From the NCBI GenBank assembly GCA_030390025.1, contig JASTWF010000180.1:62001-126000 (forward strand): DNA of 64,000 bases. Reading direction: 5' to 3'. This document shows positions 21,336-48,112 of this stretch, in pieces. Source of the DNA: Squalus acanthias. Its lineage: Eukaryota. The position numbers and the translations under genes were made by a program. The notes under the pieces were generated by a model that ran no database searches, was not told where the DNA came from, and was given only the letters and a program-made list of their open reading frames with translations. Positions within the stretch are counted from its first letter, which is position 1; every line of letters starts with the position of its first letter.

Positions 21336-22100
21336 GGCCCAGAAATTCGGCCGAATGCGGGAGAGTACGCACTGTGCACTCACCGGTATTCGGTCCCGAA
21401 ATGCCGGTTTCCTGCATGCACTGCGCATGCGCGGGAAACCGGCACTTCCGATATTGCGAAGGGGGCGGTTCCTAAGTGAACCGCGTGCGCACTACAGGCT
21501 GTGCGCACGCAGCACACTTAGGTTTTTTTTCAGGTTTCAACGCGAGGGTAAGTATGGAAGATTTTACACATGAAAAAAGGTGGCGTAAGAACCCCTTTTA
21601 ACAAGGTAAGTAGTTAATTAAGTATTATTTTAAAGTTTTTTCAGCAGTTTTATCTTTTTTAGACACTTTAAAGAAAGGTAAGTTTATTTTTATAACTTTT
21701 AAAAAGAATTTAAATTTTTGCAAAAATTTAAATTTTTGTTTAAAGTGGTTAATTTATTTAACTATAGTTATTTTATTAATGTGATGGTTTCTTTTTAAAA
21801 TTTAATTGAGGTTTAGCTGTTCTTTTGGGGACAATTTGTATTCATAGTTTTGACAGTTCTCCGGTCAAAACTATGAATGCAAGATGGTGTGCTGCCATTG
21901 GCTCTCCATGCCCCACGTGATCCCAGAGGTCGCATCGAACTAACTGCGCCTCTGGGACACGCACACACTGCGCGTCGGCACCAGGGAGAGGCCCGGGACA
22001 CGAAGTTCGTGTGGGCCCGAAACAGAACGGCAGGCGCGGTAGGTAAGATTGCGCGCGATCCTTATTCCCGCGGCAAGCCGGAGAGGCCAATTTCTGGACC
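21336..22100 (-). mobile_element. MITE-like element, left inversion boundary
   Basis: TIR GGCCCAGAAATT..AATTTCTGGACC; flanks AAT/ATT do not form a TSD. Confidence 0.82.
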
Positions 22101-22146
22101 ATTAATAAAAGTGTGAAACACAATGCTGTGTAACTTGTGAACTTAC

Positions 22147-22198
22147 CAGTTAAGAGAGCTGTAGCTCTGAGGAATAAATAATAAGCAACAGCCAGCAT
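22147..22198 (-). pseudogene. orphan V leader exon MLAVAYYLFLRATALLT
   Basis: 52-nt phase-1 exon, g|gtaagt donor, CRE promoter upstream; intron broken by MITE; no V exon. Confidence 0.68.
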
Positions 22199-22829
22199 GT
22201 TTGCAGAGAGTTGATGACGCTTTGAACCTGAAATTGTTTTTCATCAAGTGATAGAAAGACGTTGAGTCACAGCCGGCCTTTCTGCCGATTGGTTCATTCC
22301 TGAGAGAGTCAGCAGGTGATGGCAGATCAGGTCACGAGTGCAATTTTCTCAAATTCATCCAATCAGTTCACAGCTCCTTTGTTCTCCAAGTCATGACGTC
22401 AGAGCCAGCTCCGGGGAAGGGAGTGAAATTTTTCCTTCACAACAGAGAACTGGACGAGGATTAAACCCAATGCTGGTTCTTTAACAGGGTCAGTCTCTGA
22501 GGTGGGGCCAGTGAAGAAAAATAGTTAATGTTCTTCTGGCATCAGTGCCGGAGGCTCCCATTAAAAGAGCTGGTCACTGATCATTACAACTACCCACAGC
22601 CGAAATCAAGGGGCATATTAATGCCAGCGGGTCCTCTAGGTTTAGAACAGAATGATGCTGTAAATTAGAAAAAAGCCACCGATAATATCAATGATATGCG
22701 AAGTGACTGATGGTTTGAGCAGAATGGGAGTGTGTGAACATCAGATGGGACAGTGGTACTGGAGTGAGCTACTCATTACAAATATTTACAACATATTGAC
22801 ATCAGCAATAACCATAATACAAAATAACT

Positions 22830-24500
22830 TTTCCTTATTCATTCCGGGATGTGGGAGTTGCTGGCAAGGACAGGATCTATTGTACATCCCTCATTGCCGC
22901 TGAGATGGTGGCGGTGTGCCGCCTTCTTGAATCACTGCAGTCCTTGTGGTGAATGTACTCCCGCAGTGCTGTTACGGAGGGAGTTCTAGGTTTTGGACTC
23001 AGCGACGATGAAGGAAGGACGATATACTTCCAAGTCAGGATGGTGTGTGACTTGGAGGGGAACTTGGAGGTGGTGGTGTTCCCATGTGCCTGCTGCCCTT
23101 GTCCTTCTAGGCGGCAGATGTCGCAGGTTTGGCAGATTCTGCCAAAGAAGCCTCGGCGTTATGCTGTAGTGCATCTTGTAGATGCTATATACTGCAGCCA
23201 CGGTACACCGGTGGTGGAGGAACTGAATGTTTAAGGTGGTGGATGGGGTGCTAATTAAGCAAGCTGGTTTGTCCTGGATGTGTCGAGCTTCTTGAGTTTT
23301 GGCTTTGGGGAGTCAGGAGATGAGACAGCCGCAGCAGAATACCCAGCCTCTGACCTGCTGTTTTTGCTGCAGTATTTATGTGGCTGGATCAGTTAAATGT
23401 GAGAAGTCGCACAACACCAGGTTATAGTCCAGCAGCTTTATTTGAAATCACAAGCTTTCGGAGCGCTGCTCCTTCGTCATTCACCTGACGAAGGAGCAGC
23501 GCTCCGAAATCTTGTGATTTCAAATAAAGCTTTTGGACTTGAACCTGGTGTTGTGCGACTTCTCACATTTGTCCACCCCAGTCCAACTCCAGCATCTCCA
23601 CATCATGGTTCCGAAAAGTTTCTGGTCAATGGTGCCACCGGGAATGTGATGGTGGGGTATTCGGCGATTGTAATGTCGCTGAATGTCAAGGGGCGGTGGT
23701 TAGATTCACTTTTGTTGAAGATAGTCATTGCCTGGCACGAATGTTACTTGCCACTTATGCGCCAAAGCCTGAATGTTGACTAGGTCTTGCTGCATGTCGG
23801 CACGGATTGCTTTTTTATCTGAGGAGTTGGGAACACTGTGCAATCATCAGCGAACATCCCTACTTCTGAACTTAAGTTGCAGGGAAGGTCATTGATGAAG
23901 CAGCTGAAGGTGGTTGGGCCTAGGACGCTGCCCTGAGGAACTCCTGCAACGATGCAGTGGGGCTGAGATGGATGGCCTCCAATAACCACAACCATCTTAC
24001 TTTGTGCTGGATATATCTCCAGCCAGTTGAGTGTTTTCTTCTTGATTCCATTGACTTCAATTTTACGAGGCTCCTGGATGACACACTCGGTCAAATGGTG
24101 CCTTGATGTCAAGGGCAGTAACTCTCACTTCACCTAGGGAATTCAGCTCTTTTGTCCATGTTTGGACCAAGACTGTAATGAGGTCTGGAGACGAGTAGTC
24201 CTCGAGGAAACCAAACTGAGCATCGGTGAGCACGTTATTGGTGAGTAAGTGCCACTTGATAGCACTGTCGACGACACCTTCCATCACTTTCCTGATGAGT
24301 GAGTAGACTGATGGGGTGGTAATTGGCCGAATTGGATTTGTCCTGCTTTTTGTGGGCAGGACACACCTAGGCAATTTTCTACATTGTCGGGTAGATGCCA
24401 GTGTTATAGCTGTACTGCAACAGATTGGCGAGAAGCGTGGCTAGTTCTGGAGCACAAGTCTTCAGGACGACAGCTCGGATATTGTTGGAGCCCATAGCCT
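22830..24500 (-). mobile_element. LINE (CR1/L2 group) RT fragment
   Basis: GVPQGSVLGP..FINDL..MFADD and ALDIKAPFDRV motifs, frameshifted. Confidence 0.88.
23395..23605. mobile_element. palindromic Penelope-like insertion with hammerhead motif
   Basis: Inverted repeat centred near 23480; tcac-CTGACGA-aggagcagcgctcc-GAAA-tctt-gtga. Confidence 0.72.
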
Positions 24501-24646
24501 TGCGTGCCCTGTGTTATTGGAGAGTTTGGTGCTGCTGTTCTCTGTTTGGCATTGGTGTGACCAGCAGTGCAGTGCAGCAGAGGATCTGCATTTGTGCTCC
24601 GACACAGGATTTCCCGGTCTGTAGCGTTACAGACAAATAGAGCATC

Positions 24647-24893
24647 ATGCGGATCCGTCACGTTCCGCTCCTCATCATTATATCACTTCTCAGTAATATT
24701 ACTTTCCCAGTAAAATTCCATTGGTCCTCTGACTGCTGTAACACAAGTGTTATTCTTGGTAAAGTGATGTTGTTGATGATGATAATGATGGATCATGGTT
24801 GAAAATGTTTTTTCAGATCTGAGTCATGGAGATTCTGTCACTTGGCGGCTGTGCTCAGGAATTAAGTCAGAGTGGGAAGCGGTGACTTTTTGA
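24647..24893 (+). pseudogene. truncated V relic with family D-like leader
   Basis: Leader MRIRHVPLLIIISLL 24647-24692 |gtaat; exon from 24817 DLSHGDSVT..EAVTF then stop. Confidence 0.7.
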
Positions 24894-25017
24894 GTTTTGT
24901 GTTTTGTTGCACTTTTGAGAAGGTCCCTGTGCCTCTCACTGTGGAGGCTAAATTATCGCTTCAGTTTCGCGGTGTGAGACCGCCCTCTGGTGAGCACTAA
25001 CTGGAACTCTCAGTATG

Positions 25018-25140
25018 GGTTTTTGTACGTGATCCTCGACATCTCTGTGGCATTGTGGGTTCATGGCACAGAAATACACGGCGGTGTCGGAGATCAGGGG
25101 TTTGCCGATCGTTAGCTCGGTAATCTTGACACTCTCATTA
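25018..25140 (-). pseudogene. orphan V 3' fragment with RSS
   Basis: ITELTIGKPLISDTAVYFCAMN; CACAATG (25051-25057), 24-bp spacer, ACAAAAACC (25018-25026). Confidence 0.85.
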
Positions 25141-25310
25141 TTACACTGCTTTTTCTCCTTCTCTTTCTCATTCTTTCTTTCGTTTTCACTTTCTTTTCCA
25201 CTGTATATTTTACAACTCTCTTCATTTCTCACTTTCTTCAAATCTTTATCTTCTACCAATCGCGTTTTTCCAAACACAGCAGAGCAGGTTTCTGTGTTTG
25301 TTGCACTGTG

Positions 25311-25644
25311 GGCTCACGAAGCAGAGATCGGTGGCGGTGTCTGTCACTCGCGCTTCTCTCACAGTCAGGGCAGTGAGTTCGTTGCCTCCCCCGATTGAAG
25401 CACTGATCCTTCCGTGTTGATCGGCCCCGCTTGTGGCCATCACCAGATGCTGGAGGGTCTGATCCGGGTTCTGTCTGTACCAGTGCAGGAAGGTAAACGC
25501 AGCGACAGTGGTGCAGTTGATGGATACGCTTCTCTCTTCACTAACAACCACCCGCCGAGGGAGCTGCGTCACCTCATCCTCGCCGCTCACATCCGTGCAG
25601 ATCAGAGTGTAAATCAGCAGGGAAACTCTGTAAATCCGGAGCAT
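25311..25644 (-). CDS. single-exon leader+V TCR V gene, probably non-functional
   Basis: MLRIYRVSLLIYTLICTDVSG contiguous with EDEVTQ..INC..WYRQ..TDTATDLC; heptamer CACAGTG 25304-25310; nonamer-like ACAGAAACC only 8 bp away. Confidence 0.85.
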
Positions 25645-25824
25645 TATCCGATCAGATGAAAAGGAGGCTGAAAATATTGCACGCGAAGGTTTGGTTAGAG
25701 CCAGGACACCGATATTATATTCAGCAGCATTAACAAAGAGACAAACTCCCGCTTTACTCAGAGGCTTCTTCCTGTCTAACTAACGAAACAAGCTCAGTCT
25801 CGGGGATTACCCAGCCCGGGCGGC

Positions 25825-26620
25825 CCACACTCAGTGTTTCTCAGTAACGCCAGCTCACATTGTCTCTGCCCACACACAGGGAAGCCCACACTCAGTTTTT
25901 ATCACTAACACCAGCACAAACTCTCTCTGAGCTCACACCGGCCTCCCACATTAAGTATTTCTCACTGACACTAGCTCGCACTGTCTCTGAACTCACACCG
26001 GCCGCTCACACTCAGTGTTTCTCACTGACACCAGCTCACACTGTCTGTGAACTCACACCGGGCCGCTCACACTCAGTGTTTCTCACTGACACCAGCTCAC
26101 ACTGTCTCTGAGCTCACACAGGGCCGCCCACACTCAGTGTTTCTCACTGACACCAGCTCACACTGTCTCTGAGCTCACACCGGGCCGCCCACACTCAGTG
26201 TTTCTCACTGACACCAGCTCACACTGTCTCTGAGCTCACACCGGGCCGCTCACACTCAGTGTTTCTCACTGACACCAGCTCACACTGTCTCTGAGCTCAC
26301 ACCGGGCCGCCCACACTCAGTGTTTCTCACTGACACCAGCTCACACTGTCTCTGAGCTCACACCGGGCCGCCCACACTCAGGGTTTCTCACTGACACCAG
26401 CTCACACTGTCGCTGAGCTCACACCGGGGCGCTCACACTCACTGTTTCTCACTGACACCAGCTCACACTGTCTCTGAGCTCACACCGGGGCGCTCAAACT
26501 CAGTGTTTCTCACTGACACCAACTCACATTGTCTCTGAACTCTCACCAGGCCGCCCACATTCAGTGTTTCACTGACACCACCTCACACTGTCTCTGAGCT
26601 CACACCTGGCCGCTCACAGT
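25825..26620. repeat. 61-bp minisatellite, ~13 units
   Basis: cacactcagtgtttctcactgacaccagctcacactgtctctgagctcacaccgggccgcc. Confidence 0.95.
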
Positions 26621-27059
26621 TTCACATTGCCCTCTTGTCTCGAGTACTGGTAATTGCGTGGTGCAATTTGTGACGCCAATTCCCGAAATGTTGTAATTCA
26701 CGAGCTAATGACAAATGAGCTGAGCTACTTGCTTCTTCTCGGGATGGCTCCGTCATCCAGAGAGTTTCTACCTCTCGCCTTCCGTTGTAACATCTAATGA
26801 TTCCAATGTATTGCCTCCCCCATTCTAACTTGGAAGAATACACGTGAGATTACAGTCGAATGGCCGAAAGACATGACCCAACCCCCGAGGCCCGTGACGG
26901 ACTTTGACAGGCACACGAACCTTAAACCCACAGGTTGTGTGGAGTTTTCCTTTCATATCACAAGACGTGGAGATTAGGAACTGATCCTATTGGAAGATGC
27001 TCAATGTTCATTGAAGGAAGTTTTTTTCAATTGATTCAAGCACCTTCGCGTTGCACCCC

Positions 27060-27506
27060 TGGAGCTGTGGGGAATTGTATGTCTGTTTAACTACTTTGAT
27101 TTACTTCTCAGGTAAGTTTTGAGGGTGACGGGCTGATTCTGGGGGATAGACACAGTGAAGTGCCAATGTTTAATTTAATATCGCTCTGGGCTGTTGCAGG
27201 ATATTATCGAGGCGACTCCCTTTCACAGACACCAGCTGCAACCACAGTACGTGAAGGAGACGATGTTCAGTTCCACTGTAATTATACAGCTACAAGCACC
27301 GTCAACCCTTACCAATTCTGGTACCGTCAGTATCCCAGCGAATCCATAGAGTATCTGCTGAAGAGAAACAAATACAAAGAGCACCAAGAGACAGTTCCAG
27401 GGGACCGTTTATCAGCGAAGATCAATGATTTGAACCGAACCATCCCGCTGAAAGTGTCTCAAACACAACTGACAGACTCCGCGGTGTATTACTGTGCACT
27501 GAGCCC
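27060..27506 (+). CDS. single-copy TCR alpha/delta V; V exon 27200-27506 intact, leader exon lacks in-frame ATG
   Basis: GDSLSQTPAA..FHCNY..FWYRQYP..DSAVYYCALS; donor g|gtaagt at 27111; RSS CACAGAG-23-ACAAAAACT (27507-27545). Confidence 0.88.
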
Positions 27507-27719
27507 CACAGAGACACGGAGCTGGCCTCGACATTGACAAAAACTGTCAGAGCGTCGCTCAGCATATCAGCGCGTCAGGGGAGCATTGTGATCAGGAGCG
27601 AGGTTGAGCTGGTCCCTATATTTATGATTAGATCTTCGGCTGTTAATTATAATATATATATACTTTTAGTTATAATAAATATATGATAGAAATATACAAA
27701 TGCAGTTACACGAGTAAAG

Positions 27720-28165
27720 AAAGAAAGAGTATTGATAGAGGCCTTTCACGACATCCCAACATGTTTAACAGCCGATGAAGTACTTTTGAATTGTAACCAC
27801 TGTTGTAATGTAGGAAACGCGATAGCCAATTAGCGTGCAGCAAGCTCCCACAAACAGTAATGTCATAATGACCAGATAATATGCCTTAGTGATGTTGATT
27901 GAGGGACAAATTTTGGTCAGGATTTGAGGAGAAATCCTCTGTTCTTTTTCGAAATAGTGGGGTCTATTAAATTGCCTGAGAGAGCAGATAGCGCGAGGTA
28001 TAACGTCTCATTCAAAAGATAGCACCCCTGAGAGTGCAGCACCCCTTCAGTACTGGCGCCGGGAGGGTCTGCCCAGATTTTGTGCTCAAATCCCTGCAAT
28101 ATGAATTGAACCCATAACATTCTGACTCAGAGGCGAGAGTTCTACCAACTGAGACACGGCAGACA
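27720..28165 (-). mobile_element. old tRNA-derived SINE (SacSINE1/DeuSINE-like)
   Basis: Minus-strand head ccgtgtctcagttggtagaactctcgcctctgagtcagaa..gggttcaa; family name from memory. Confidence 0.55.
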
Positions 28166-30389
28166 CCTGGTTCTTGTAGATTAGACATTAAACTATTTAT
28201 ATTAATACATACTTAGCTGCATTAATTATAAATATATATATATATAAAATATATATTCACTCACCTGCACAGCTCCATTGCTCAAATCTTTAACCATGGA
28301 GGATAGACAGACACTGAGCTTGTCCACCGTGGGGGGCTCACTCACCTGTATGGTACAATGCTCCTTTCACTCATCTACCTGCATTTGTATATATATAAAT
28401 ATACATATAATTATACATACATATATATTCATACAAATGTAGGTAGATGAGTGAAAGGCCTTTATAGAGGTAACAAGGCTGATGACTGACAAACAGGTGG
28501 CCAGCAGCCTGTCTGGGCCTCAATTATTTGTTCTCCGGGAGCAAGGGGAACCAGTCTGCACCAGGGTTATCCCAGGTCAACTACACGCAGAAAGGAATCA
28601 CCGAAACTGGGAAATGCAGGAGGAAAAACATTCTTACTGTCTGGAGCATGTACATAAAGATCACGGACATTCGTCGCAAGTTGAACTGAAATTAAATGAA
28701 AGTCAATTGTTGTGAATGTGGGTTGTGGGTTATTGTTGCTTGTTGTGCAGATTAGAAAGGGTCAAATCTGCGAGCGGAAGCTGTGAATTTGCCAGCTCCA
28801 ATTCATCTGATTAATGTTTCTGTCCTGTAAGTGTTGTCGTAGAAAGCACGACATTTGCCATCTGCATCAGCGTCAGCGCAACATCTCCCCAAAATTGGGC
28901 CCTGGAAACGTCCCCACAGATGCGCTGACAGTGTGTTTTCACCCAGTATCCGAACAGTGTAAAAGTTCTCATCATATCCGCCAGAGGGCGCCGTGGTCAC
29001 ATGTTTCTCGCTGCTCCCTCAGGATTCGTACTTGTGCAGGTGAGTGTGCCCCCCACGGTGTCTCAGCCCAGTGCCTGGCTGTCTTCCATGGTTAACAATT
29101 TGAGCAATGGAACTGTGCAGGTGATTGAGCCACCCACGGCGGATCAGCCCCATCAATGTCTGCTCTCCATGCTTAAATATCTGAGCATTGTACCGATACA
29201 GGTGAGGGAGGCTTCCCACAGTTGTCCAGCTCAGGGTCTGTCTGTCCTCCATGGTTGAAGATTGGAGCAATGGAGCTGTGCAGGTGAGTGAAACCACCTC
29301 CATAGATCAGCCCTTAGTCTGTCTGTACACTTTGAGCGAGCTACCCAAAGGAGTGAGATAGATAAAGGTGAGACTGAGCACAGTGAGTGATGCAGAGAGA
29401 CACCAAAATCAGGGAGTGAGCTAAAGGTCTGACTGAGTACAGTAATACAGAGAGATACCAACAGAGGGAGATTGAATAAGACGTGTATTTATAAATATAA
29501 AGACACAGAAAGGGAACAGGTTAATAAGGGTTGTGCTGACTATTCCACCATTGGGATGACCCCTGAAGCCGTGCAGCGGGGCAAAGGGGTCGGAACTGTT
29601 CAGTGTAATACAAATGGACAATGCGAGGGCTGAGTAAACACAGCCTGACTGAGGTAGAGTGACTCACACGGACACAGGGCCAGAGAGACTGAATCTCAGG
29701 GATACTCACACGGACTGTAGACTGCACGGTGTCACCTGGGGACATGGGAATGGGTGGGAATCTGTGGAAAGCATAGGGAATGAGGGAGATGGGGAGAAAT
29801 GAGCAGAACAGATGGTGAATATCATTGTAAACAGAGGTAGAAATTAACTGACATGTAACAGAAAAATAAACAGCTGGTTACAATAAAACAAAGAAACTGA
29901 TGAAAAAGGAGAATGGAAGTGACTGAATGAAATGAAGATCTGAGCAATGTACCTGTGCAGGGGTATAAGGGCCCTCACGGTGGCTCAGCTCAGTGCCTGT
30001 CTGTACTCAATGGTTGAACGTTTTTACCCAGGCTGCATCCCTTAGACCCGGATCCGAGCGGGAGAGGTGCCACACAGGCTCAGGTAGGAACCACTCAGGA
30101 CACTGCCACATGGAAGACTGTCCATCACCGCACCCCCCACCCCCACCGGCTACAGACCGTCTTACCATAGACTCTGCCATAGGTGGAAGGCGGTGTCTGA
30201 GATGCAGACAGCCGTTAAATAGTAGGTGAGGGCTCTGGAATGGGCTAATGGGGGTTTTGAGTTGCAAGCCTCTGCTATATCAGGAGAGGTCCGAGCCACC
30301 GAGCTACAGTCAGGTTGATGAATGTCTCTATTTGTAAACTCTCTGTCTCACTGCACATGTATTTAAAATGAGTTGTACAACGGTGAAAT

Positions 30390-31770
30390 ATAAACAGAGG
30401 CATGGTCTAGTGTCGTAATTACTGAGACTGGGCTTAGTGTAATATAAAAACAGGGACATGGTCTGGTGTAGCAATAGCTGAGACCAGCCCTAGTGTAATA
30501 TAAACAGAGACATCGTCTCGTGTAATATAAACAGAGACATGGTCTAGTGCAGTAATAGCGGAGACAAGCCCTACTGTATTATAAACAGAGGCAGCACCTA
30601 GTGTTAGATAAAAAGAGACAGCGCATAGTGTAATACAAACAGAGACAGGGCCTACTGTAATATAAACAGTGATAGGACCTAGTGTAATATAAACAGAGAC
30701 AGGGCCTACTGTAAAATAAACAGAGACAGGGTCTACTGTAATATAAACAGAGACAGGGTCTAGTGTAATATAAACAGAGACAGAACCTTGTGTAATATAA
30801 ACAGAGACAGGGCCTACTGTAAAATAAACAGAGACAGGACCTAGTATAATATAAACAGAAACAGGACCTGGTGTTATATAAACAAAGACAGGGTCTACTG
30901 CAGTGATAACTGAGACAGAGCATAGTGTAATATAAGCAGAGACATGGTCTAGTGCATTGATAACTGAGACAAGGCCTACTGTTACGTAAACACAGGCATG
31001 GCCCAGTGCAGAGATAACTGAGACAGTGCTTAGTGTAATATATAAAAAAAAGGCATGAACTAGTGCAGCAATAGCTGAGACAAGGCCCAGTGTAACATAA
31101 AAAGTGGCAGGATCTAGTGTAATATAAACAGAGACAAGGCCCAGTGTAATATAAACAGAGACAGGGCTTCGTGCAATATAAACAGAGACAGGGTCCAGTG
31201 TAATATAAACAGAGACAGGGTCTAGTGTAATATAAACAGAGACAGGGTCTCGTGTAATATAAAATGAGACAGGGTCCAGTGTAATACAAACAGAGACAGG
31301 GTCTAGTGTAATATAAACAGAGACAGGGTCTAGTGTAATTTCAACAGAGACAGGGTCTAGTGTATTATAAACTGAGACAGGGTCTAGTGTAATATAAACA
31401 GAGGCAGGGTCTCGTGTAATATAAGCAGAGAAATGTTCCAGTGTAATATAAACAGTGACAGTGTCTAGTGTAATATAAACAGAGACAGGGTCCAATGTAA
31501 TACGAACAGAGTCAGGTTCTAGTGTAATATAAACAGAGACAGGGTCCAGTGTAATATAAAGAGAGACAGGGTCTAGTGTAATATAAACAGAGACAAGGCC
31601 CAGTGAATTATCAACAGAGACAGGGTCTAGTGTAATATAAACAGAGACAGGGTCTAGTGTAATATAAACAGAGACAGGGTCTAGTGTAATATAAACAGAG
31701 ACAGGGTCGAGTGTAATACAAATATAGACAGGGTCGAGTGTAATATAAACAGGGACATGGTCTAGTACAG
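30390..31770. repeat. 27-bp minisatellite, expanded inverted paralog of 3730-4590
   Basis: (tgtaatataaacagagacagggtctag)n. Confidence 0.95.
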
Positions 31771-31821
31771 AAATTGTTTGGATTGCGACCAATAATCTCC
31801 ATATAATGTATTTTCTTGCAG

Positions 31822-31947: not shown

Positions 31948-34900
31948 CCCCGGACAGATTAATTCAGCAATTTAACCTGATTGATTTCTGAAAATTCTAG
32001 AAGATTGGAAATCACGGAGTTGCTGATAAACAGGTGCCAGACCAGCTGGTGGCTGACCTTATCTCCAGTACCTTAGTTCAGCCGTTTTTGGTCGATTGTG
32101 TGTGTTAATTGCTGAATAACACGGGCAGAGATCGACGTTTCCAGAATGGTTCGGACGCGTGATTCCTGGGTGTTTGCTGCCATCTATTGGAATAAGTCAA
32201 TATTGCTCCCCGGTCATTTTGCCTTCAATTCGGTGAAGTGCTGTTTCCAAGTCACATTCGGACATTCAGAAGGCGATTGTGCCAAAACGGTTGTGGTAAT
32301 GAACCAGTTTTCTTTAGTACTAGAAAAAACACAGTTAATAATTCAAGTTGCTAACAATCTTACCAGCTAAGGCAATAGATACAATAGAACTGATATTTCT
32401 CGTTCCTATTGGGAGCAGCGTTAACCTGTTGTTCCTTGACTGCTTCAAGCTTGTACCTTTCAAGTGCTTTGATCTTTTGTGTTATAGTCTTAGTAACGTT
32501 TAAGTAACGTGATGATAACATGTCAACACCCCATAATTAATACATAACATGTTAACCCATTAAAACATCTTGTAAATTATGAAATTCTCTCTAATGAGTC
32601 TGTACGGCGTTACCTCGTCTTTGTACTTGGTTCTTTATACGGTTTGAACCTCACTATCTCGTCTTTTCTTATATCTTCCATATTAGCCTTTTTTATTCAG
32701 TCGGTTCCTCTATCTATCTGGCCCGGAGCCTGGAAGACACCACGTCTGTTCTTACAGGTTATAAGCCATTAAACTTCGTTTGCAGCTTCTAATTTTGTCC
32801 TGATTTTTACCACTGGAATCTCCTTATAATGCAGATTGTTAGTTTTAACATGTGCAAGTGTCTTTAATAGTGAGAAATGTTTAATAACGTTATTAGAATT
32901 ATTAGAGTCTTCCCCGATCGACCTATCACCGTCTACACTGTAGACTGATATTTTAAACGAATCACTATTTGTCCGTTTGCCGTGAGTGTTTGACAAATCT
33001 TTTAGAATTTTTTGAGGTTTGAGCTAGCAGTATAGATAAGGGGGGACCAGTTGATGTGGTGCATTTGTATTTTCAGAAGGCATTCGATAAGTTGCCACAC
33101 AAGAGGTTCTAAAAGAAAATTAGGGCTCATGGGATTGGGGATAGTATACTAGCATGGATTGAGGATTCGTTAACGTACAGAAAACAGAGAGTAGGAATAA
33201 AGGGCTCATTATCGGGTTGGCAGGCTGTAACTAGTGGGTTACCGAAAGGATCAGTGCTTGGACCTCAGCTATTCACAATCTACATCAATGATATGGATGA
33301 GTGGACCAAATGTAATATATCCAACTTTGCTGATGTTACAAAGCTGGGTGGGAATGTAAGTTGCGAGGAGGATGTGAGGAAGCTACAAGGGGATATAAAC
33401 AGGCTAAGTGAGTGAGCAAGAACTTGGCAAATGGAATATAATGTGGAGAAATGTGAAGTTATCCACTTTGGTAGGAAAAATAGAAAAGCAGAGTATTTTT
33501 GAAATGTTGACAGATTGGGAAATGTTGGTGTTCAGAGGGCCCTGTGTGTCCTTGTACATGAATCACTGAAAGTTAACATGCAGGTACAGCAAACAATTAG
33601 GAAAGCACGTGGTATGTTGTCATTTTTACAAGAGGATTTGTGTATAAGAGTACAGCCGTCTTACTGCAATTATATAGGGCCCTGGTGAGACCACACCTGG
33701 ACTAATGTGTACAGTTCTGATCTCCTTACCTAAGGAAAGATATACTTGCAATAGAGGCAGTGCAACGAAGGTTCACCAGACTGGTTCCTAGGTTGAGGGG
33801 ATTGTCCTATGAGGAGAGATTGAGTAGACTTGGCCTATATTCTCTGGAGTTTAGAAGAATAAGATGTGATCTCATTGAAACATACAAAATTCTTACAGGG
33901 CTTGAGAGGGTAGATGCAGCGAGGATGATTCCCCTGGCTGGGGAGTTCCTCTCTTTCATCAGACCCTATGTTCCCCAGAGATGTCGGGGAACATAGGGTC
34001 TGATGAAAGGGAGGAACTGAAAGAAATCAGTATTTGTAGGGAAATGCTGTTAGGGAAATTGGCGGGTTTGAAGTCCGTAAAATCCCCAGGGCCTGATAAT
34101 CTACATCCTAGGGTACTTAAGGTAGTCGCCCTAGAAATATTGATGCATTGCTGATCATCTTCCAACATGCGATGGAATCTGGAACAATACCCATGGATTG
34201 GAGGGTAGCTAATGTTACCCCACTATTCAAAAAAGGTGGTAGAGAGAAAACGGGGAATTACAGACCGGTAAGCCTGACATCGGTAGTGGGGAAAATGCTA
34301 GAGTCCATTACAAAAGATGTAATAGCAGAGCACTTGGAAAACAGTGACAGGATCGGACAAAGTCAACATGGACTTACAAAAGGTAAATCGAGCTTGACTA
34401 ATCTACCGGAATTTTTTGAGGATGTAACTGTTAAAATAGTAAAGGGAGAACCAGTGGATGTGATGTATTTGGACTTTCAAAAGGCTTTCGATTAGGTCCC
34501 GCATAGGAGATTAGCGTGTAAAGTTAAGGCACATGGGATTGGAGGCAAGGTATTGACTTGAATAGAGAACTGATTGGCAGACAGACAGCAAAGATTTGGA
34601 ATAAACAGGTCTTTTTCTGAGTGGCAGGCAGTGACTGGTGGGGTACCGCAGTGATCGGTCCTTGGACCCCAGCTATTCACAATATATATTAATGATCTAG
34701 ACAAGGGAACTGGATGTAATATCTCCAAGTTTGCAGACGGCACAGGGCTGGGTGGGCGTGTGTGCTGTGAGGAGGATGCCGAGAAACTCCAGGATGATTT
34801 GGACAGGTTGGGTGATTGGGCAGAAGTATGGCAGATGCAATATAACGTGTATAAATGCCTGGTTATCCACTTTGGTGTCAAAAACAGGAAGGCAGATTAT

Positions 34901-35407: not shown

Positions 35408-35445
35408 TTACCTGACGAAGGAGCGACAGCTCCGAAAGCTTGTAA
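35408..35445 (+). ncRNA. minimal type I hammerhead ribozyme motif
   Basis: ttac CTGACGA a ggagc gaca gctcc GAAA gctt gtaa. Confidence 0.68.
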
Positions 35446-37090: not shown

Positions 37091-37129
37091 AGTTATTGTA
37101 CGAGGCTTCAACTCATTCCCATCACTGTG
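37091..37129 (-). promoter_or_regulatory. 23-RSS
   Basis: CACAGTG, 23 bp, ACAATAACT on the minus strand. Confidence 0.95.
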
Positions 37130-38180
37130 AGCCTCAGTGCACAGTAATACACCGCGGTGTCAGTCAGCCGCAGCCCCGAGATGGTCAATCGGTACAACTT
37201 CTCTGACCGCTGGACTGTATCAGAAAACTGGCCTCGAGCGAAATCCGCCTGATATTCAGAACCGCCGTCTGTGTACCTCTGGACTGCAAACTCGGGCTGT
37301 CTGCCTGGGTATTGGCGGTACCAGTATAAATAATTACCAGCGGCGGAATAGGTGCAGGTTAAAGTGGCATCTTCTCCCTCTGTCTGTGTGAGCGAGGGCT
37401 CCCGCTGAGTAACAGAATCTCCATCGCTCAAATCTAGAACACACGGTTAAAGAAAGCGGAATGAATCGGTTAAAGGGTCAAACTGAATCAAGTAACATTG
37501 AGTTTTACATAAAATTAAAAATAATTTACTGCACACAAATAGGTCATTCGGCAAACTGTTCTCTGTCCGTGTTTATACTCCCACCCACACTTCATCTAAC
37601 GCTATCAGCATATCTTTCTGCTCCTTTCTGCCTCATGTACTTATCCAGCCTCCCTTAAATGTATCTATGCTATTCGTCTCAACCACCCTCTGTGGTAACG
37701 GGTTCCACATTCTCAACACTCTCTGGGTAAAGAAGTTTCTCCAGTATTCGCTATTGGATTTTTTTGTGATTTTCTTACATTTCTGGCAGCTGGTTTTGGA
37801 GTTCCCCACAAGTGAAAACATATTCTCTACGTCTATCCTATCAATCCCTTTATAATTTTAAAGATGTCTATCAGGACACCTCTCAGCCATCTCTTTTCTA
37901 AAGAAATGAGCCCCAGCTAGCTTAGTCTTTGCTGATAGTTATAATTTCTCAGTTCTGGTGTAATCCTTGTAATTTTCTTCATCCTTCGCCAGTGCCGCTA
38001 TATATTTTTTATAAATGGAGACCAGACCTGTTCACAGTACACGTATTGTCTCACCAAAGGCTAACACAACTTCTCTGGTTTTCAATTGTATTCCTCGAGA
38101 AATGAATCCCTTTTAGAAGTTATAAACTTCTTACCGAACATGAATGTCAACCAGACCACAGCGAGAAAGGAGAGCTGCAT
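37130..38180 (-). CDS. TCR alpha/delta V family A, apparently functional (exons 38180-38135, 37433-37130)
   Basis: Leader MQLSFLAVVWLTFMF, GT-AG intron, open V exon to DTAVYYCALR. Confidence 0.95.
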
Positions 38181-39397
38181 GGCTGCTACTCCGTAATTCG
38201 AGGGAGGTTTTGTGTCTCAGAAACCTGCAGAACGTCAAATAGATAAAGCCGAGAGCGCCGGCTGGGGCTGGTCTGACCTCATTTCCTGCAGAACTTCAAT
38301 CAGAAAAACTGAGAACACAGGATGGGGCTGGTCTGACGTCACTTCCTGCAGAACTTCAATCAGAATGAGCTGAGAGCGCCGGCTCGGGCTGGTCTGACGT
38401 CATCTCCCTGAACCACAGGTATGTGTTGATTGCAGATAACTGAGTCATCCACTAACGTCACATTCTGCTGATCGGGGCGAGAAATACTAATAAAAAGAGA
38501 CAGCTTAATTTATAATTGATCTGAGAGACATCTTGATCTCTAACGGACCCGAGACAGTTTGCTCTCCAATTGACCGAAGAGACAGCTTGATCATTAATTG
38601 ACCTGAGAGAAAGCTTGACTTGAGGAAAGTAGCCTCCAAGTGATAAAAATTATTTGAGTGTAGATGAATATGTTCACTTTTTTTCACTCACTGTCATTAA
38701 TCAGACTGAGGTGTTTGACAAGAGGTCGGGTTTGATTAAACTTCTGCTGGGGACAAACAATGGGATGATTTCCTCTGGTCTCCCTGCGTCAGCGACATCC
38801 CAAACACAGCGGGAAATCTCGTCTGGTCGCTAGTTTAGTAGAATCGTCATTCATTCTTTTAGAATGCGTTCACTATGTCACTAAAAGCAGCGACCAGAAG
38901 AATTCTACCACACAGAGCGGACCCCTCGATGTAAACACGAATGTTAAGGAGAATTAAATTATTGCTCTCGGTGAGCCGTCACACATCGACAGAAATTAAA
39001 CCAGCACTCAGAAAAGGAAAGGTTTAAAGCCCTTTGAATATAATCCCAAACCGAAGCAAAGCTGCACACATCTGTGCTGGTTTAAGGGGTGTGAAAATGA
39101 AAAAAGCACAGCGGCAGTGAGATGGAAACTTGAAATTGAACACACATTACACGTTACATTGTCCGATTAAACCTGCGCGGGATTCCTCCTGTTCATCCCT
39201 CAGTATAGAGAGAATGAAATCTAAAACCATACTCCTCTATTCAGAGATTTTGTGAGCTGCCCGATGGGAATATTCTGTCCTGACAGTAACTGTCCGATTG
39301 AGACCATCACAGGCAGGTATTCCGACCACACACTGTTCAATTTATACACGGTGTGCTGCGGTATTCTACAGGACGGGCACAGAGCTGTGCAGCTATG

Positions 39398-39842
39398 GGA
39401 CTCAGAGCGCAGTAATACACGGCGCCCTCTGACAGCTCCGCCCCAGAAACTCTCAGCCGAACCGCGCCCTCTTCTGCGCTGAGCTCTGCTGCAAAACGGT
39501 CCTTGGCGAAGTCGCCTGGCAACGTGCTGTATTTGTTGATAAACAACACGTTTACCTGGGGCTCGACCGGGAATCTGCCGGTACCAGAAAAGCTCAGGGT
39601 TTGTATCTGTTGTTGTAAAACTGCAATTCATCGTCACCGTTTCTCCTTCCCGCACAGTCCTGGTCGAATAGTCTTGATGCACGGATTCGCCGCCAACGCT
39701 GTTGGCTGGAAGAAAAATTGAACATTTACAAATGCCCGCCCCTCTAACCGGACCTATTGGTGTGTTTTCTACTCAGATTCACAATGTAATTGCACAGCAC
39801 AGAGAGCGCCAACACTACACTGAAATAAACAGGGAAACACAT
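39398..39842 (-). pseudogene. TCR V family B pseudogene
   Basis: 1-nt insertion at ~39555; GC leader donor; heptamer CATAGCT. Confidence 0.92.
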
Positions 39843-40727
39843 CGCTGTCCGGGGGTCACAATATGAGCATCGACCCCTTCACTACTGTCGCAAAAAACTG
39901 CCACCAGTGCCGGATCAGGCTGAACTATTTAACCCTGTGGTAAGCTTAGAAAGGGTAGTGACTCTGCAACCATATCACATCCGTTTGTGATAATTTCACA
40001 ATATCAGGGAGTGGGGAGAATTGCTGTGGTCACTGATGTGTGTGCAGCAACATCCGAAATGTTTCAATGGACATTCCTCTGATCGGCAGTTCTAGGGAAA
40101 TCAGATACTCTATATTATTGAAAAACTTAATTTCTTTAAGGTTCATTTAGACAGAGCGACCAGAGGAAATCTTCGTGGAAGGATTTACCATTTGCTGCAC
40201 TCAGTGAACGGGGAAATTGTCCCCCTTGCTTAGTTTTTTAGTTCATTGCATGTAGCAGTGGCATTTTGCGTAGACAGTACTGAGCTGCTCTTAGTTTTAT
40301 CGGGGAGAGTAAATGTAATTTTAATATAGCAAATAGCGAAACAGAGACTGCAGAAATTCGCTCCACGGAGCCACCAAGTGGTCAGAGCCTGTAACTACAC
40401 GATGACTGTTCTCCTGGGTCAAAGTCACCCCCGAGTGCCTCTTTAACTTGCCTTCTCTGCTCATTCCAAAAATCATACACAGCAAGGAAAGAGGCCATTC
40501 GGCCCATCGTGCCAGTGTCGGCTTTTTAATTTGTGCCACATAACTGCTGTTCTCCTATAGCCCTCTAAATTTCTCCTTTTAGCTAAATATCGATTATTTT
40601 TAGTGAATCGCTGTTTAGACAGGAAGGCTGTGTCCTACGGAACGTTTGCAGTCATATACAGAGAGATAAAACAGCAGTTTGATCCGCAGAAATTGCTGAG
40701 AGCGTTCTGTGTGTGCACACCTCTGTG

Positions 40728-40857
40728 NNNNNNNNNNNNNNNNNNNNNNNNNNNNNNNNNNNNNNNNNNNNNNNNNNNNNNNNNNNNNNNNNNNNNNNNN
40801 NNNNNNNNNNNNNNNNNNNNNNNNNNNNNNNNNNNNNNNNNNNNNNNNNNNNNNNNN
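40728..40857. other. assembly gap (130 N)
   Basis: N run where paralogs carry a (CA)n/(TA)n microsatellite. Confidence 0.99.
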
Positions 40858-41164
40858 TGAATAACAGAAAGAAAGAAGGAGGATGTAAAGTTACGCTTGT
40901 AATATTGTAAAATAGTTGTAAACAATGGCCGGTTGAAAGTGTTCCGTGTAACCTCGTCTCACGCTTCTGTTTGAATTTGATTCAATATTCCCGTTTGAGA
41001 TACAGACCATCAGTAGATTATTGGTAAACAGACTGTGACTGGTGCCACGCTAACCCGATGACAGCTCACCAAAGGCCGTTTAAATGTTACCATCCAGACC
41101 CAATGGAGCTGTAAATATTCGCTGAGGTTTTTGTACGGAGCCTTTGTTTTTATCTGACGCTGTA

Positions 41165-41690
41165 TCACTCTGCACAGTATTAGACCGCACCGTAACCGAC
41201 ATTCAGGGCGCTAATATTGAGGTAACCATAATTTCTAGATTGATCAACAGCCGCCAGATATTGTCGCGAGATTTCGACGCCGTTCAGTGCTGTTACTCTG
41301 CTAATTATCCGGCTTGGATGCTGTGCCAGTCTCTGCCGATATCATTGGATGTAGTCAATATCCAGGGTTGTATATTCGCAGTCTAACTGCACCGAACACC
41401 GTGCTGAGACGGCAATTGTCAACGGAAACTGAGTTGCTGGATCTACACATAATCGGCCTGAGAAGAAAGGGGAACAGAAGAACATGAGTTTGAGCAGTAT
41501 CGTTTTAAATTTGCGTCTATCTGTGTGAGTGTGTGTAACCGCACATGTTCCAAACTGTGCATCATATGGATATTTCTGATGCCCTGCACAAACTCTTTGC
41601 TTCATTGTGCTGACCTGTGTTTTTAAATATAATCCGGTACTTACTGTGCATCACAGCCGCCAGTATTATGAAAACATGTCTGATTAAATC
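41165..41690 (-). pseudogene. TCR V family C pseudogene
   Basis: TGA at conserved Trp, TAA in YYC; heptamer TACAGCG, nonamer ACAAAAACC. Confidence 0.9.
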
Positions 41691-42599
41691 TCTCACAGTT
41701 ATTTGAAATGGAATAATGCAGAGATTGAGAAGGAGAGCGGTAACCCGGGGCCTGTTCAGCTCATTGTTCCACCCACACACTGCAGGGGGTAGGCCCAATT
41801 ATGACCTCATTCAGGCTTCTATCATTATTGGCTTTGCTGTTTGCATCACGTGGCTTTCCAATTACCATGCTTGAGTTTGGCTTTGTTCACTTTGTTTCAC
41901 TAACTGTCAGTAATCAGACTGAGGTGGTTGACAAGAGTTCGGGTTTGATTAAACTTCTGCTGGGGACAAACAATGGGATGATTTCCTCTGGTCTCCATGC
42001 GTAAGCGACATCCCAAACACTGCGGGAAATCTCGTCTGACCAGCAGTTTTGCAGAATCGTCATTCATTCTTTTAGAATGCGTTCACTATGTCACTAGAAG
42101 CAGCGACTAGAAGAATTCTACTGCGCAGAGCGGACACCTCGGTGTAAACACGAATGTTAAAGGAGAATGAAATTATTGCTCTCGGTGAGCCGTCACACAT
42201 CGACAGAAATTAAACCAACACTCAGAAAAGGCAAGGTTTAAAGCCCTTTGAATATAATCTCAAACCGAAGCAAAGCTGCACACATCTGTGCTAGTTTAAG
42301 GTGTGTGAACATGAAAAAAACACAGCGGCATTGAGAGGGAAACTTGAAATTGAACACAAATTACACGGTACATTGGTCGATTAAACCTGCGCGGGTTTCC
42401 TCCTTTTCATCCCTCATTATAGAGAGAATGAAATCGAAAACCATACTCCTCTATTCAGAGCTATTGGGAGCTGCCCGATGGGAATAACTGTCCTGACAGT
42501 AACTGTCCTAATCAGACCATCACAGGCGGGTATTCCGGCCACACACTCTTCTCGTTACACGCGGTGTGCCGCAGTTTTTGGACAGGACGGGCAGTTGTG

Positions 42600-43034
42600 C
42601 GTCTCAGCGCGCAGTAATACACGGCGCCGTCTGACAGCTCCGCCCTAGAACTCTCAGCCGAACCGCGCCCTCTTCTGCGCTCAGCTCTGCTGTGAAACGG
42701 TCCTTCGTGAAGTCGCCTGGCAACGTGTTGTATTTGCTGATAAACAACAGGTTTACTGGGGCTCCACCGGGAATCTGCCGGTACCAGAAAAGACCAGGGT
42801 TTGTATATGTTGTTGTAAAACTGCAATTCAGCGTCACCGATTCTCCTTCCCGCACAGTCCTGTTCGAATACTGTTGATTCGGCGCCAAAGTTGTTGGCTG
42901 GAAGAAAAATTGAACATTGACAAATGCCCGCCCCTCTAACCGGAGCTATTGGTGTGTTTTCTTCTCGGATTCACAATGTAATTGCACAGCACAGAGAGCG
43001 CCAACACTACACTGAAATAAACAGGGAAACACAT
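42600..43034 (-). pseudogene. TCR V family B pseudogene with two frameshifts and shortened RSS spacer
   Basis: 8-nt and 1-nt deletions; RSS CACAACT-11-CCAAAAACT (42573-42599). Confidence 0.9.
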
Positions 43035-44310
43035 CGCTGACCGGGGGTCACAATATGAGCATCGACCCCTTCACTACTGTGGCAAAAACTGCCACCAGTA
43101 CCGGATCAGGCTGAACTATTTAACCCTGTGGTAAGCTTAGAAAGGGTAGTGACTCTGCAACCATATCACATCCGTTTGTGATAATTTCACAATATCAGGG
43201 AGTGGGGAGAATTGCTGTGGTCACTGATGTGTGTGCAGCAACATCCGAAATGTTTCAATGGACATTCCTCTGATCGTCAGTTCTAGGGAAATCAGACACT
43301 CTATATTATTGAACATCTTAATTTCTTTCAGGTTCATTTAAACAGAGCGACCAGAGGAAATCTTCGTGGAAGGATTTTCCATTGGCTGCACTCAGTGAAC
43401 AGGGAAATTTTCCCCCTTGCTTAGTTTTTTAATTCATTGCATGTAGCAGTGGCATTTTGCATAGACAGTACTGAGCTGCTCTTAGCTTTATCGGGGAGAG
43501 TAAATGTAATTTTAATATAGCAAATTGCTACCAGAGACTGCAGAAATTCGCTCCACGGAGCCACCAAGTGGTGAGAGCCTGAAACTACACGATGACAGTT
43601 CTCCTGTGTCAAAGTCGCCCCCGAGTGCCTCTTTAACTTGCCTTCTCTGCTCATTCCAAAAATCATACAGCAAAGAAGGAGACCATTCGGCCCATCGTGC
43701 CAGTGTCGGCATTTTGATTTGTGCCACATAACTGCTGTTTTCCTATAGCCCGCTAAATTTCACCTTTTAGCTACATATAGATTATTTGTAGTGAATCCCT
43801 GTTTAGACAGGAAGGCTGTGTCCTACAGAACGTTTGCAGTCATGTACAGAGAGATAATGTAGCAGTTTGATCCTCAGAAATTGCTGAGAGCGTTCTGTGT
43901 GGGCTCACCTCTGTGTGGTTGTCGCTATTTCTCTCTCAATCACACACACACACGCAGATATATGTATATATATATATATATGAGAGAGAATTAGATGGAA
44001 AAATGAATAACATAAAGAAAGAAGGAGGATGTAAAGTTACGCTTGTAATATTGGAAAATAGTTGTAAACAATGGCCGGTTGAAGGCGTTCCCTGTAACCT
44101 CGCCTCGCGCATCTGTTTGAATTAGAATCAATATTCCCGTTTGAGATACAGACCATCAGCAGGTTATTGGTAAACAGACTGTGACTGCTGCCTCGCCAAC
44201 CCGATGGCAGCTCACCAAAGGCCGGTTAAATGTTACCATCCAGCCCCAATTGAGCTGTAAATACTCGCTTAGGTTTTTGTACGGGGCCTTTGTTTTTATC
44301 TGACGCTGCA

Positions 44311-44830
44311 TCTCACTGCACAGTAATAGAGCGCACCGTAACCGACATTCAGGGCGCTTATATTGAGGTAACCACACTTTCCAGACTGATCAACAGCCGT
44401 CAGATATTGTCGCGAGATTTAGACGCCGTTCAGTGCTGCTACTTTGCTAATTATCCGGCTGGGAGGCTGTGCCGGTCTCTGCCGATATCATTGGATGTAG
44501 TCAATATTCAGGGTTGTATATTCGCAGTCTAACTGCACCGAACACCGTGCTGACACGGCAATTGTCAGCGGAGACTGAGTTACTGGATCTGCACACAGTC
44601 CACCTGAGAAGAAAGGGGAACAGAAGAACATGAGTTTGAACAGTATCGTTTTAAATTTGCGTCTTTCTGTGTGTGTGTGTAACCGCCCATGTTCCAAACT
44701 GTCCATCATATGGATATTTCTGATTCCCTGCACAAACTCTTTGCATCAATCTCCTGACCTGTTTTTTTTAAATATAGTCCAGTACTTACTGTCCATCACA
44801 GCCGCCAGTATTACGAATACATGGCTGATT
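44311..44830 (-). pseudogene. TCR V family C pseudogene
   Basis: V exon 44603-44311; TGA at conserved Trp; heptamer TGCAGCG. Confidence 0.9.
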
Positions 44831-45925: not shown

Positions 45926-45944
45926 TGTTCATCGGCTATTTGAG

Positions 45945-47165
45945 AGAGGAGAAAGAGAAAACATGGTGAAATGTAGGGCAGTTAGACTCACATCAGCAGT
46001 AGGCAAAATGCTAGAATCTATTATTAGGGCACTTAAAAAAATCATAATATGATTAGGTAAAGTCAAGGTGGTTTTTTGAAAGGGAAATCGTGTTTGACAA
46101 ATCTGTCACAGTTTTTTGAAGATGTAACAAGTAGATGGATAAGGGGGTACCAGTGGATGTAGTGCATTTGGATTTTGAAAAGGCTTTCGATGAGGTGTCA
46201 AACAAGAGGGTATTACACAAAATTAGGACTCAGGGTATTGTTGGTAATAAATTAGCATGGATTGAGGATTGGTCAATGGACAGAAAACAGAGAGTAGGAA
46301 TAAAAGGATCATTTTCGGGATAGAGACCGGTTGACTGAGTGAGCAAGAACATGGCAAATGGAATACAATGTGGGGAATGTGAAGTTATCCACTTTGGTAG
46401 GTAAAACAAAAAAGCGTAATATTTTTTGAATGTTGAGAGGCTGGGAAATGTTTGCAGTCAGCGGGACCTCGGTGTCCTTGTACATGAATCACAGAAATTT
46501 TACACACAGGTACAGCAGGCATTTAGGAAAGCAAATGGTATGTTAGCTTTTGTTACAAAGAGATTAGAGTATAAGTGTAAAGAAGTCTTCGTACAATTAA
46601 ACAGGGCATTCGTGAGGCCACACCTGGTGTACTGTGTACAGTTTTGGTCTCCTTACCTAAGGAAAGACATACTTGCCTTAGAGGGAGTGCAGCGAAGGTT
46701 CACTAGACTGGTTCGTGGGATGCGGGGATTGCCCTATGAGGAGGGATTGAGTAGACTGGCCTATATTCCTTAGAAGTGTGAGAGGTGATCTAATTTAAAA
46801 GTATAAAATTCTTAAACGGCTTGACGGGTTTAATGCGGGGTAAATGTTTCCCCTGGCTGGGGAATCTAGAACACGGGCTCACAGTCACAGAATAAACGAT
46901 AGGACATTTAGGACTGAGATGAGGAGAAATTTCTTCACTCAAAGGGTTGTGAATCTTTGGCATTCTCTACCCCAGAGAGTCGCGGTTGCTCGTTCGTTGA
47001 GTATACTCAAGACAGTGGTCGATAATATTTGGGGAACGAAGGTAATTAAGGGATATGGGGATAGTGCGGGAAGATGGAGTTGAGCTGGAAGATTAGCCAT
47101 GATCTTGTTGAATGGCGGAGCAAGTTCGAAGAGCCAAATGACAGATTCCTGCTCCTATTTCATAG
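45945..47165 (+). mobile_element. CR1/HER1-type LINE fragment
   Basis: RPHLVYCVQFWSP, FRTEMRRNFFTQ motifs. Confidence 0.9.
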
Positions 47166-47348
47166 GTTCTAATTTTCTCCTGAATGTGATCTCCTGGAAC
47201 CTGCGAATATAGAAGATCATTTACGTTAATATGTGTTAAGTGTCTTTAATATTGAGAATTGCTTATTATCGTTATTAGAATTATTGGGAACTTACGCACA
47301 CCACCTATCTCTGTCTGCAATGTAGACTGATATTTTAAACCAATCATT

Positions 47349-48112
47349 GGCCCAGAAATTTGACTCGGAGGCTTGCCGCGGGGGTAAGGATCCCCCGCGA
47401 TATCACACACCGCGCCGGCCGTTGTGATTCGGGCCCACACGAACTTCAGCTCCCGGGCCTCTCCCTGCTGCCGGCGCGCAGTGTGTGCGTGTCCCAGAGG
47501 CGCAGTTAGTTCGATGCGACCTCTGGGATCACGTGGGACATGGAGAGCCAATGGCAGCACACCATCTTTCATTCATAGATTTGACATGAGAACTGTCAAA
47601 CCTATGAATACAAATTTCCCCCAAAGGAACAGCTAAGCCTCAAATAAATTTAAAAAAAACCATCACATTAATAAAATAACTATAGTTAAATAAATTAATC
47701 ACTTTAAACAAAAATTTAAATTTTTGCAATAATTTAAATTCTTTTTAAAAGTTATAAAAATAAACTTGCCTTTCTTTAACGTCTCTAAAAATGATAAACC
47801 TGTTGAAATTTTTTTTAAATAATGCTTAATTAACTACTTACCTTGTTAAAAGGGGGTCTTACGCCTCCTTTTGTTCATGGGTAAAATCTTCCATACTTCC
47901 CTTCGGGTTGAAACCAGAAAAAAAACCTAAGTGTGCTGCGTGCGCACAGCTTGTAGTGCGCACGCGGTTCACTTCGGAACCGCCCCCTTCCCCATGCCGG
48001 AAGTGCCGGTTTCCCGCGCATGCGCAGTGCATGCAGGCAATCGGCTCTTCGGGACTGAATACGCGAGAGTCCACAGTGCGTGCTCTCCCGTACTCAGCCG
48101 AATTTTTGGGCC
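47349..48112 (+). mobile_element. MITE-like element, right inversion boundary
   Basis: GGCCCAGAAATT..AATTTTTGGGCC; flanks ATT/AAT. Confidence 0.82.

Follow-up and report, generated by a model that had tools for sequence, protein, structure and literature searches.

A 25-kb inversion between two opposite copies of a non-autonomous transposon in a predicted T-cell receptor V array of Squalus acanthias

Introduction

How do V segments of opposite orientation come to lie within a single antigen-receptor array? The question is raised by a stretch of the Squalus acanthias genome, 64,000 nt of contig JASTWF010000180.1 of assembly GCA_030390025.1 (the window; all positions below are window positions), in which V segments resembling those of T-cell receptor (TCR) loci run on the plus strand on either side of a block where most run on the minus strand, and in which the block is bounded by two copies of a short transposon. 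A first-pass annotation, made from the letters of the sequence, had proposed a ~25-kb inversion between two inverted elements and had ascribed it to ectopic recombination. The inversion is borne out in the assembled sequence, in that collinearity is restored when the block is turned back and the flanks of the elements are exchanged. We consider it probable that the inversion arose in the germline when two opposite copies of a non-autonomous terminal inverted repeat (TIR) transposon, each from an insertion of its own, underwent non-allelic homologous recombination; reciprocal flank exchange, parental junctions in paralogs, restored collinearity, and unequal relatedness of the boundary copies to a third copy of the element all support this reading. 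Below, the two copies at the ends of the block are called the left and right boundary copies, and the copy in an un-inverted paralogous block is called the third copy; site 1 and site 2 are the target sites of the two insertions (Table 1).

Results

The block is inverted relative to its paralogs

In a self-BLAST comparison of the window, with matches counted if they were at least 500 bp long and at least 78% identical, 31 of 56 matches were on the minus strand. After an in-silico flip of positions 21392-48056, 2 of 56 were, both of them matches of element to element, and the drop in inverted self-matches is far beyond chance. The paralogous block at the start of the window unites the left flank of the left boundary copy with the right flank of the right boundary copy. 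We take the present order to be the derived one and the breakpoints to lie inside the elements, because the in-silico flip restores collinearity and places AAT on both sides of each element. The locus thus combines the features by which inversions mediated by transposable elements (TEs) are recognized: opposite homologous copies at both breakpoints, exchanged flanks and target-site duplications (TSDs), and a parental order that is restored by the flip.

At base resolution, and in the orientation of the element, the left boundary copy is flanked by cacacttttattAAT / ATTatttgtcc and the right one by aaaccaatcATT / AATgtctctt, as the first-pass annotation had given them, and its proposal that swapping the flanks restores the TSDs also held, each site reading AAT..AAT on the plus strand once the block is flipped in silico. 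Taken alone, the swap is weak evidence, because AAT is ATT read on the other strand, so that both are one duplex trinucleotide; it is the kilobases of flank homology that, as we read the sequence, carry the case for the inversion.

At site 2, the 3-bp duplication of AAT is proven, because three paralogs hold the empty site with a single AAT. Two of these sites had been reported before, near 13740 and 57211, and are found at 13745 and 57217; the third, at 53477, had been missed. A junction between array units (57184-57219) lies ~30 bp ahead of the empty site 2 that belongs to the closest paralog. For site 1, a search with a few exact patterns found no empty site in the window, and the TSD is seen at the left boundary copy alone, because the third copy is 3 nt short on its left. 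The third copy had been described as keeping the first parental flanks; this is right for the flank pair, while its TSD, read as ATT..AAT, is imperfect. Either the third copy lost 3 nt or the left boundary copy gained 3 nt.

The flanks of the duplicated segment that carries the site-1 element are 96.5-97.4% identical, which caps the flip's age in relative terms. No marker postdating the inversion turned up, and the flip can be dated only as later than this ~3% duplication. The paralog that holds the third copy lacks 5.4 kb (junction 6601/6603, corresponding to 22758-28183), and the missing 5.4 kb hold the V segments of families D, E, and F. Identity at this junction steps from 90-93% on its left to about 97% on its right, and this step suggests that two duplicates of different age were joined to make the paralog.

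The boundary elements

The two boundary copies are identical at 687 of 763 aligned columns (90.0%). Their TIRs, ~12 bp long with one mismatch each, begin with GG; the longest ATG-started frame has 74 codons, and folding is strong (z -10 against 20 shuffles). Short, bounded by TIRs, flanked by a TSD, and non-coding, the element has these hallmarks of a miniature inverted-repeat transposable element (MITE). The window holds only three copies, derived from two insertions, and the third copy is disrupted by a ~460-bp insertion resembling a short interspersed nuclear element (SINE) (about 7456-7915, with GAGAG duplicated) and by a 44-bp deletion. The SINE-like element, ~450 bp long, is present as three independent insertions (7456-7915, 36079-36504, and 59948-60412) that are 90-95% identical. 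A canonical heptamer of the recombination signal sequence (RSS) lies in the subterminal region of both boundary copies (21370-21376 and 48072-48078), without a nonamer.

An ANT target duplication (AAT at site 2, by way of the empty sites) and a TIR that begins with GG are both traits of Pangu-type elements, a match that rests on two insertions and on a 3-mer, which is weak. The TWA target duplication of strict PIF/Harbinger elements is absent; the TSD is AAT/ATT.

Position of the exchange within the elements

The first-pass annotation had proposed a three-way alignment of the elements for mapping the crossover. Aligned over 766 columns, with informative sites defined as those at which the third copy agrees with one boundary copy, the three copies place the crossover near column 702 with moderate support. 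Up to column 702, 50 informative sites favor the left boundary copy and 11 the right one; afterwards the counts are 2 and 7. When sites were treated as independent, a switch of this strength was reached in 4 of 1,000 and in 3 of 600 permutations; the posterior for a switch in columns 692-720 was 0.87, and the likelihood ratio against an exchange exactly at the tip was 489. Non-CpG sites gave the same switch (40:9, then 1:4), and all identical runs of at least 15 bp between the boundary copies end by column 693. The earlier statement that each boundary copy resembles the third copy at one end only is correct in that the switch is seen; the pattern is lopsided, with the left boundary copy following the third copy over ~700 of the 766 columns.

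On this alignment, an internal crossover ~50-65 bp from the outer ends is likely, though not proven, and has moderate support. The left boundary element would then be a chimera, mostly the site-1 insertion with ~50-65 bp of site-2 origin at its outer end, and the right one the reciprocal chimera, mostly the site-2 insertion with its outer tip from site 1.

The array and its V segments

Twenty-one V segments or fragments were inventoried in the window by tblastn. For the intact V inside the block, the best relatives (the 5 best of 13 matches) are Chiloscyllium and Scyliorhinus proteins of unnamed function (63-72%), and a sawshark protein named TCR alpha chain-like is identical to it at 51 of 97 residues (53%). 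The family-A V matches a coho salmon TRAV/DV at 40% and contains a V-set domain by Pfam. A V-set exon, a separate leader, and a 3' RSS with a 23-nt spacer are present in all three intact family-A genes, at 13k, 37k, and 53k. Because of the protein matches, the V-set domain, and the 23-nt-spacer RSS, we file the array as probable TCR alpha/delta V segments of an elasmobranch; the comparison with named proteins covers family A only. A sequence search of the PDB did not discriminate the chain type, multi-domain antibody fragments dominating the best 60 of 2,476 matches, and Rfam gave 0 matches at the gathering threshold.

No J segment was found in the window: 71 sites resembling an RSS with a 12-nt spacer were tested and yielded 0 full J motifs, with one chance FG/WG match among them, in a stop-containing frame. 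No constant exons turned up among the open frames of the window, in which no search was aimed at constant exons.

The A-, B-, and C-family segments divide by location, all 5 of 5 inside the block being on the minus strand, as had been claimed, and 13 of 13 outside it on the plus strand. The block contains eight V segments, three of which (families D, E, and F) were absent from the first-pass annotation; one of the eight is intact, and four of the five A/B/C segments carry stops or frameshifts. The intact one, at 37k, had been called so before, and leader, GT/AG splice sites, open frame, and RSS (CACAGTG-23-ACAATAACT) are all good by sequence. A homolog search with the family-D V returned a single match, a Chiloscyllium protein of unnamed function (53%). 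This segment (27040-27545) lies head-to-head with the E pseudogene, with a 61-bp tandem array of 13 copies between them (25816-26618). Mixed V orientation in the array predates the flip, because family D, on the plus strand now, was in the minority orientation before it; its orientation hints at an older inversion. Outside the block, open B and C V exons (16449-16990 and 18398-18743, plus strand) have degenerate RSSs, with heptamers CACCGCG and CACAGCT, and their function appears doubtful; the C leader is not convincingly identified.

Several repeats accompany the V segments. A 27-bp minisatellite occurs in the duplicated segment, at 3730-4596 (32 copies) and 30383-31766 (51 copies); its stop-free frames reach 466 codons and are probably non-coding. 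Reverse transcriptase fragments of a long interspersed nuclear element (LINE) lie within the block at 34121-35077, with a Pfam RVT_1 match for 34121-34492, and LINE-like pieces of similar kind are scattered across the array. An assembly gap of 130 N, at 40728-40857 inside the block, coincides with a microsatellite.

Table 1. Features of the inverted block, its boundary elements, and the V segments (window positions)
Feature	Position	Strand	Remarks
Inverted block between elements	22101-47348	minus	25,248 bp; 26,777 bp including both elements
Left boundary element	21336-22100	minus	765 bp; non-coding TIR element, MITE-like; plus-strand flanks AAT 21333-21335, ATT 22101-22103
Right boundary element	47349-48112	plus	764 bp; flanks ATT 47346-47348, AAT 48113-48115
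Third element copy	7257-8438	plus	In un-inverted paralogous block; site-1 flank pair kept; flanks ATT..AAT
Paralogous block in parental order	1-17470	plus	Matches 37187-28184 and 22757-21902 inverted, then 47543-57191 direct (self-comparison)
Most likely left exchange zone	21385-21410		Alignment columns about 693-720
Most likely right exchange zone	48038-48063		Alignment columns about 693-720
Empty site 2, single AAT	13745-13747	plus	In paralog
Empty site 2	53477-53479	plus	In paralog
Empty site 2	57217-57219	plus	Closest paralog of filled site; 95-97% over first kb, 93% overall
Intact V, family A	37091-38180	minus	Leader 38180-38135, V exon 37433-37130, 23-RSS 37129-37091; sole intact V inside block
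Intact V, family A, outside block	12318-13429	plus	Paralog of 37k V
Intact V, family A, outside block	52050-53161	plus	Paralog of 37k V
Four pseudogene V	39395-44595	minus	C 39.4-39.7k frameshift; B 41.2-41.4k stops; C 42.6-42.9k frameshift; B 44.3-44.6k stops
Two V pseudogenes/remnants, E and F	25017-25590	minus	E without second cysteine motif; F a 3' remnant, 24-nt spacer
V, family D	27200-27545	plus	V segment 27208-27506; open exon, good 23-RSS, leader without in-frame ATG

Discussion

The history that we propose for the locus has four steps. B-C-A units were duplicated in tandem, as is seen from their about 84-87% identity; one element then entered site 1 and the segment carrying it was duplicated, the element being present in both copies with flanks alike at the level given above; and a second element entered site 2 in reverse orientation, duplicating the AAT that the three empty paralogous sites hold once. 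Finally, the two elements would have undergone a crossover, most probably at a point 50-65 bp inward of the outer ends, which flipped the 25 kb between them. Within this last step, the flip itself is seen in the sequence, the position of the crossover is moderately supported, and recombination is the mechanism that we infer.

Several observations weigh against so simple a course. The third copy has no perfect TSD. The support for the switch depends on treating sites as independent: merging adjacent differences raised the permutation result to 22/600 and merging those within 3 nt raised it to 83/600, while merged clusters cut the likelihood ratio to 14 and 3.6 and the posterior to 0.27 or 0.11. 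Merging neighboring differences penalizes the dense left part of the alignment. A 40-bp identical run just before the switch (columns 654-693) also retains a posterior of 0.06-0.11. In addition, the boundary copies agree with each other against the third copy at 27 sites, versus 11 of the reverse class (columns 1-700, p 0.014), an excess that a single clean crossover leaves unexplained and for which patchy conversion must be added. Such conversion could have run between the boundary copies, or the third copy could have been converted by a copy from elsewhere; either would explain the excess. The excess is strongest in columns 301-600 (19 versus 6; about 7990-8310, 21500-21800, and 47650-47950). 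Faster evolution of the block that holds the third copy was considered as a source of the private sites of that copy and was ruled out by the balanced private-site counts of the flanks (73 versus 75, made up of 42 versus 50 and 31 versus 25).

There are other accounts of the exchanged flanks. A transposase could have flipped the block at the termini, either by using the outer TIRs as the ends of one large transposon or by an exact cut and rejoining at the outer ends, which would leave the elements non-chimeric. The nearness of the exchange to the outer ends, the similar TIRs at both ends, and the drop of the support for an internal crossover to likelihood ratios of 3.6-14 with clustered sites merged all agree with this account; however, of the 7 informative sites in the last 51 columns, the third copy shares 6 with the right boundary copy, so that the tip stayed with its own flank, and the original AAT triplets have survived unchanged, without a fresh TSD or a footprint. 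We therefore regard a flip at the termini as unlikely, whereas homologous repair set off by a transposase break would count as ectopic recombination. An artefact of assembly would arise if the elements formed a repeat node with two ways in and two ways out that was resolved wrongly. Reciprocal junctions with swapped flanks are just what a mis-resolved node yields, and reciprocity therefore does not exclude it; the gap at the microsatellite hints at a short-read assembly, the 40-bp identical run near the switch has its posterior of 0.06-0.11, and a possible misassembly has been raised likewise for an inverted TRAV block of salmon (PMC8559430). Against it, the boundary copies are just 90% identical, their longest identical run (63 bp) lies about 500 bp away from the switch with a posterior of at most 0.03, and present-day identity at the best switch point extends over 6-8 bp. 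Both junctions also lie inside contigs, away from the gap, and on two different contigs, because they are parted by the 130-N gap, on either side of which the sequence is collinear with the paralog at 43915-44004. On balance, we think an assembly error quite improbable.

Two further accounts fare worse. Intramolecular replicative transposition gives the same flank pattern, and a single element that transposed in a replicative or alternative manner could have produced its second copy and the inversion at once. One origin for both boundary copies predicts equal relatedness to the third copy, whereas 52 sites favor the left one and 18 the right (binomial p 6e-5), and over the first 200 columns their identities to the third copy are 97% and 87%; a single-element replicative origin is rejected by the 52 versus 18 sites, and we hold it to be very improbable. 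Germline inversion by RAG at cryptic signals within the elements would draw on the CACAGTG heptamer that each boundary copy carries (21376 minus, 48072 plus) some 10-25 bp away from the exchange zone, and germline RAG activity in sharks is reportedly the subject of a published study. No nonamer stands at a spacing of 12 or 23 (6-8 of 9 mismatches), however, the two heptamer sites are of the same type and make no 12/23 pair, and neither a signal joint nor a processed coding joint is present; with a heptamer that lacks its nonamer, this account is disfavored to the point of being scarcely credible. Ectopic recombination between the two elements is thus the reading that we carry forward.

For the receptor locus itself, the flip would mean that the intact 37k V and its plus-strand paralogs join D/J by opposite RAG modes, which follows from RAG geometry provided that there is one shared D/J cluster outside the window. 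The effect on the use of this gene is probably little: the functional stake is small, with one intact V among eight flipped segments, and inverted TRAV of salmon are used normally. The Atlantic salmon array has a block of 29 TRAV in opposite orientation; of the 14 functional TRAV in it, 13 are expressed, and the frequency of use is comparable between the two blocks (PMC8559430). There is a slim chance that the inversion is still segregating or differs between close species, that it was made by a vertebrate Pangu-type element, and that the exchange near the outer TIR marks a transposase break. If so, one and the same intact V would be joined by deletion or by inversion depending on the haplotype, and the locus would offer a natural experiment on whether the orientation of a V affects how often it is used or its survival over successive rounds of alpha rearrangement.

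As to the element, Pangu belongs to the PHIS DNA transposons and is described with a target duplication of the form ANT (3 bp), for which empty sites give proof, and with TIRs of 11-40 bp starting with GG or AG (PMC4482050). The element here is like Pangu in its ANT-type TSD shown by empty sites and its GG-starting TIR; it is unlike Pangu in being non-coding, without a transposase, and is at most a candidate member. None of the 15 genomes for which that source lists Pangu is a vertebrate's (PMC4482050), and no Harbinger was found in elephant shark in the data reported in PMC9179366, which makes the element a modest side lead.

Ectopic recombination between inverted TE copies, leaving chimeras with exchanged TSDs, is one of two main mechanisms of inversion (PMC3355041, PMC3698922), and TE-mediated rearrangement has general support in vertebrates (PMC13320814). 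The closest parallels are inversions of Drosophila, where the MITE BuT5 made 2s of D. mojavensis and 2x3 of D. uniseta and where Galileo inversions are known in D. buzzatii; a transposase-made break has been proposed as the trigger there (PMC3698922, PMC3355041). The present case shares with them two inverted non-autonomous TIR copies at the breakpoints, exchanged TSDs, and ectopic recombination. It differs in its vertebrate host, in a block of only 25 kb, in a TSD of 3 bp, uninformative alone, where theirs is 8-9 bp, and in the paralogs of the same window that keep both parental junctions.

Inverted V segments, too, are known from other antigen-receptor loci. Besides the salmon block, Trav3-1 of Mus castaneus and Trav of M. 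spretus show inversions, including a functional inverted gene (bioRxiv 10.1101/2024.09.05.611428). Both V orientations within one TCR alpha/delta array are common to these loci and the present one, whereas the breakpoints here are resolved to a transposon pair and the available parts of those reports give no breakpoint mechanism. The inverted TRBV30 of human and Trbv31 of mouse are conserved, and inverted V segments after C occur in beta and delta loci (PMC12227049). Such a V rearranges by inversion and its neighbors by deletion, and a split of joining modes, in either assignment, would recur here. The genes in question are ancient, single, and placed 3' of C, whereas this is a local, lineage-specific block within the V array. 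Inversions have also been reported in bird IGH loci (bioRxiv 10.64898/2026.09.05.749481). For sharks, the available portions of PMC12227049 and PMC5931798 contain no map of V orientation, and no MITE-bounded inversion of a TCR or shark locus is among the literature matches listed, a coverage outside which most subscription journals fall. Mechanism and consequence both have published precedents, and the shark TCR case would be a further instance of them; with both parental junctions preserved in neighboring paralogs, it is an unusually clean example of an inversion and offers a base-resolution view of how mixed V orientations can arise in the antigen-receptor loci of the oldest jawed-vertebrate lineage.

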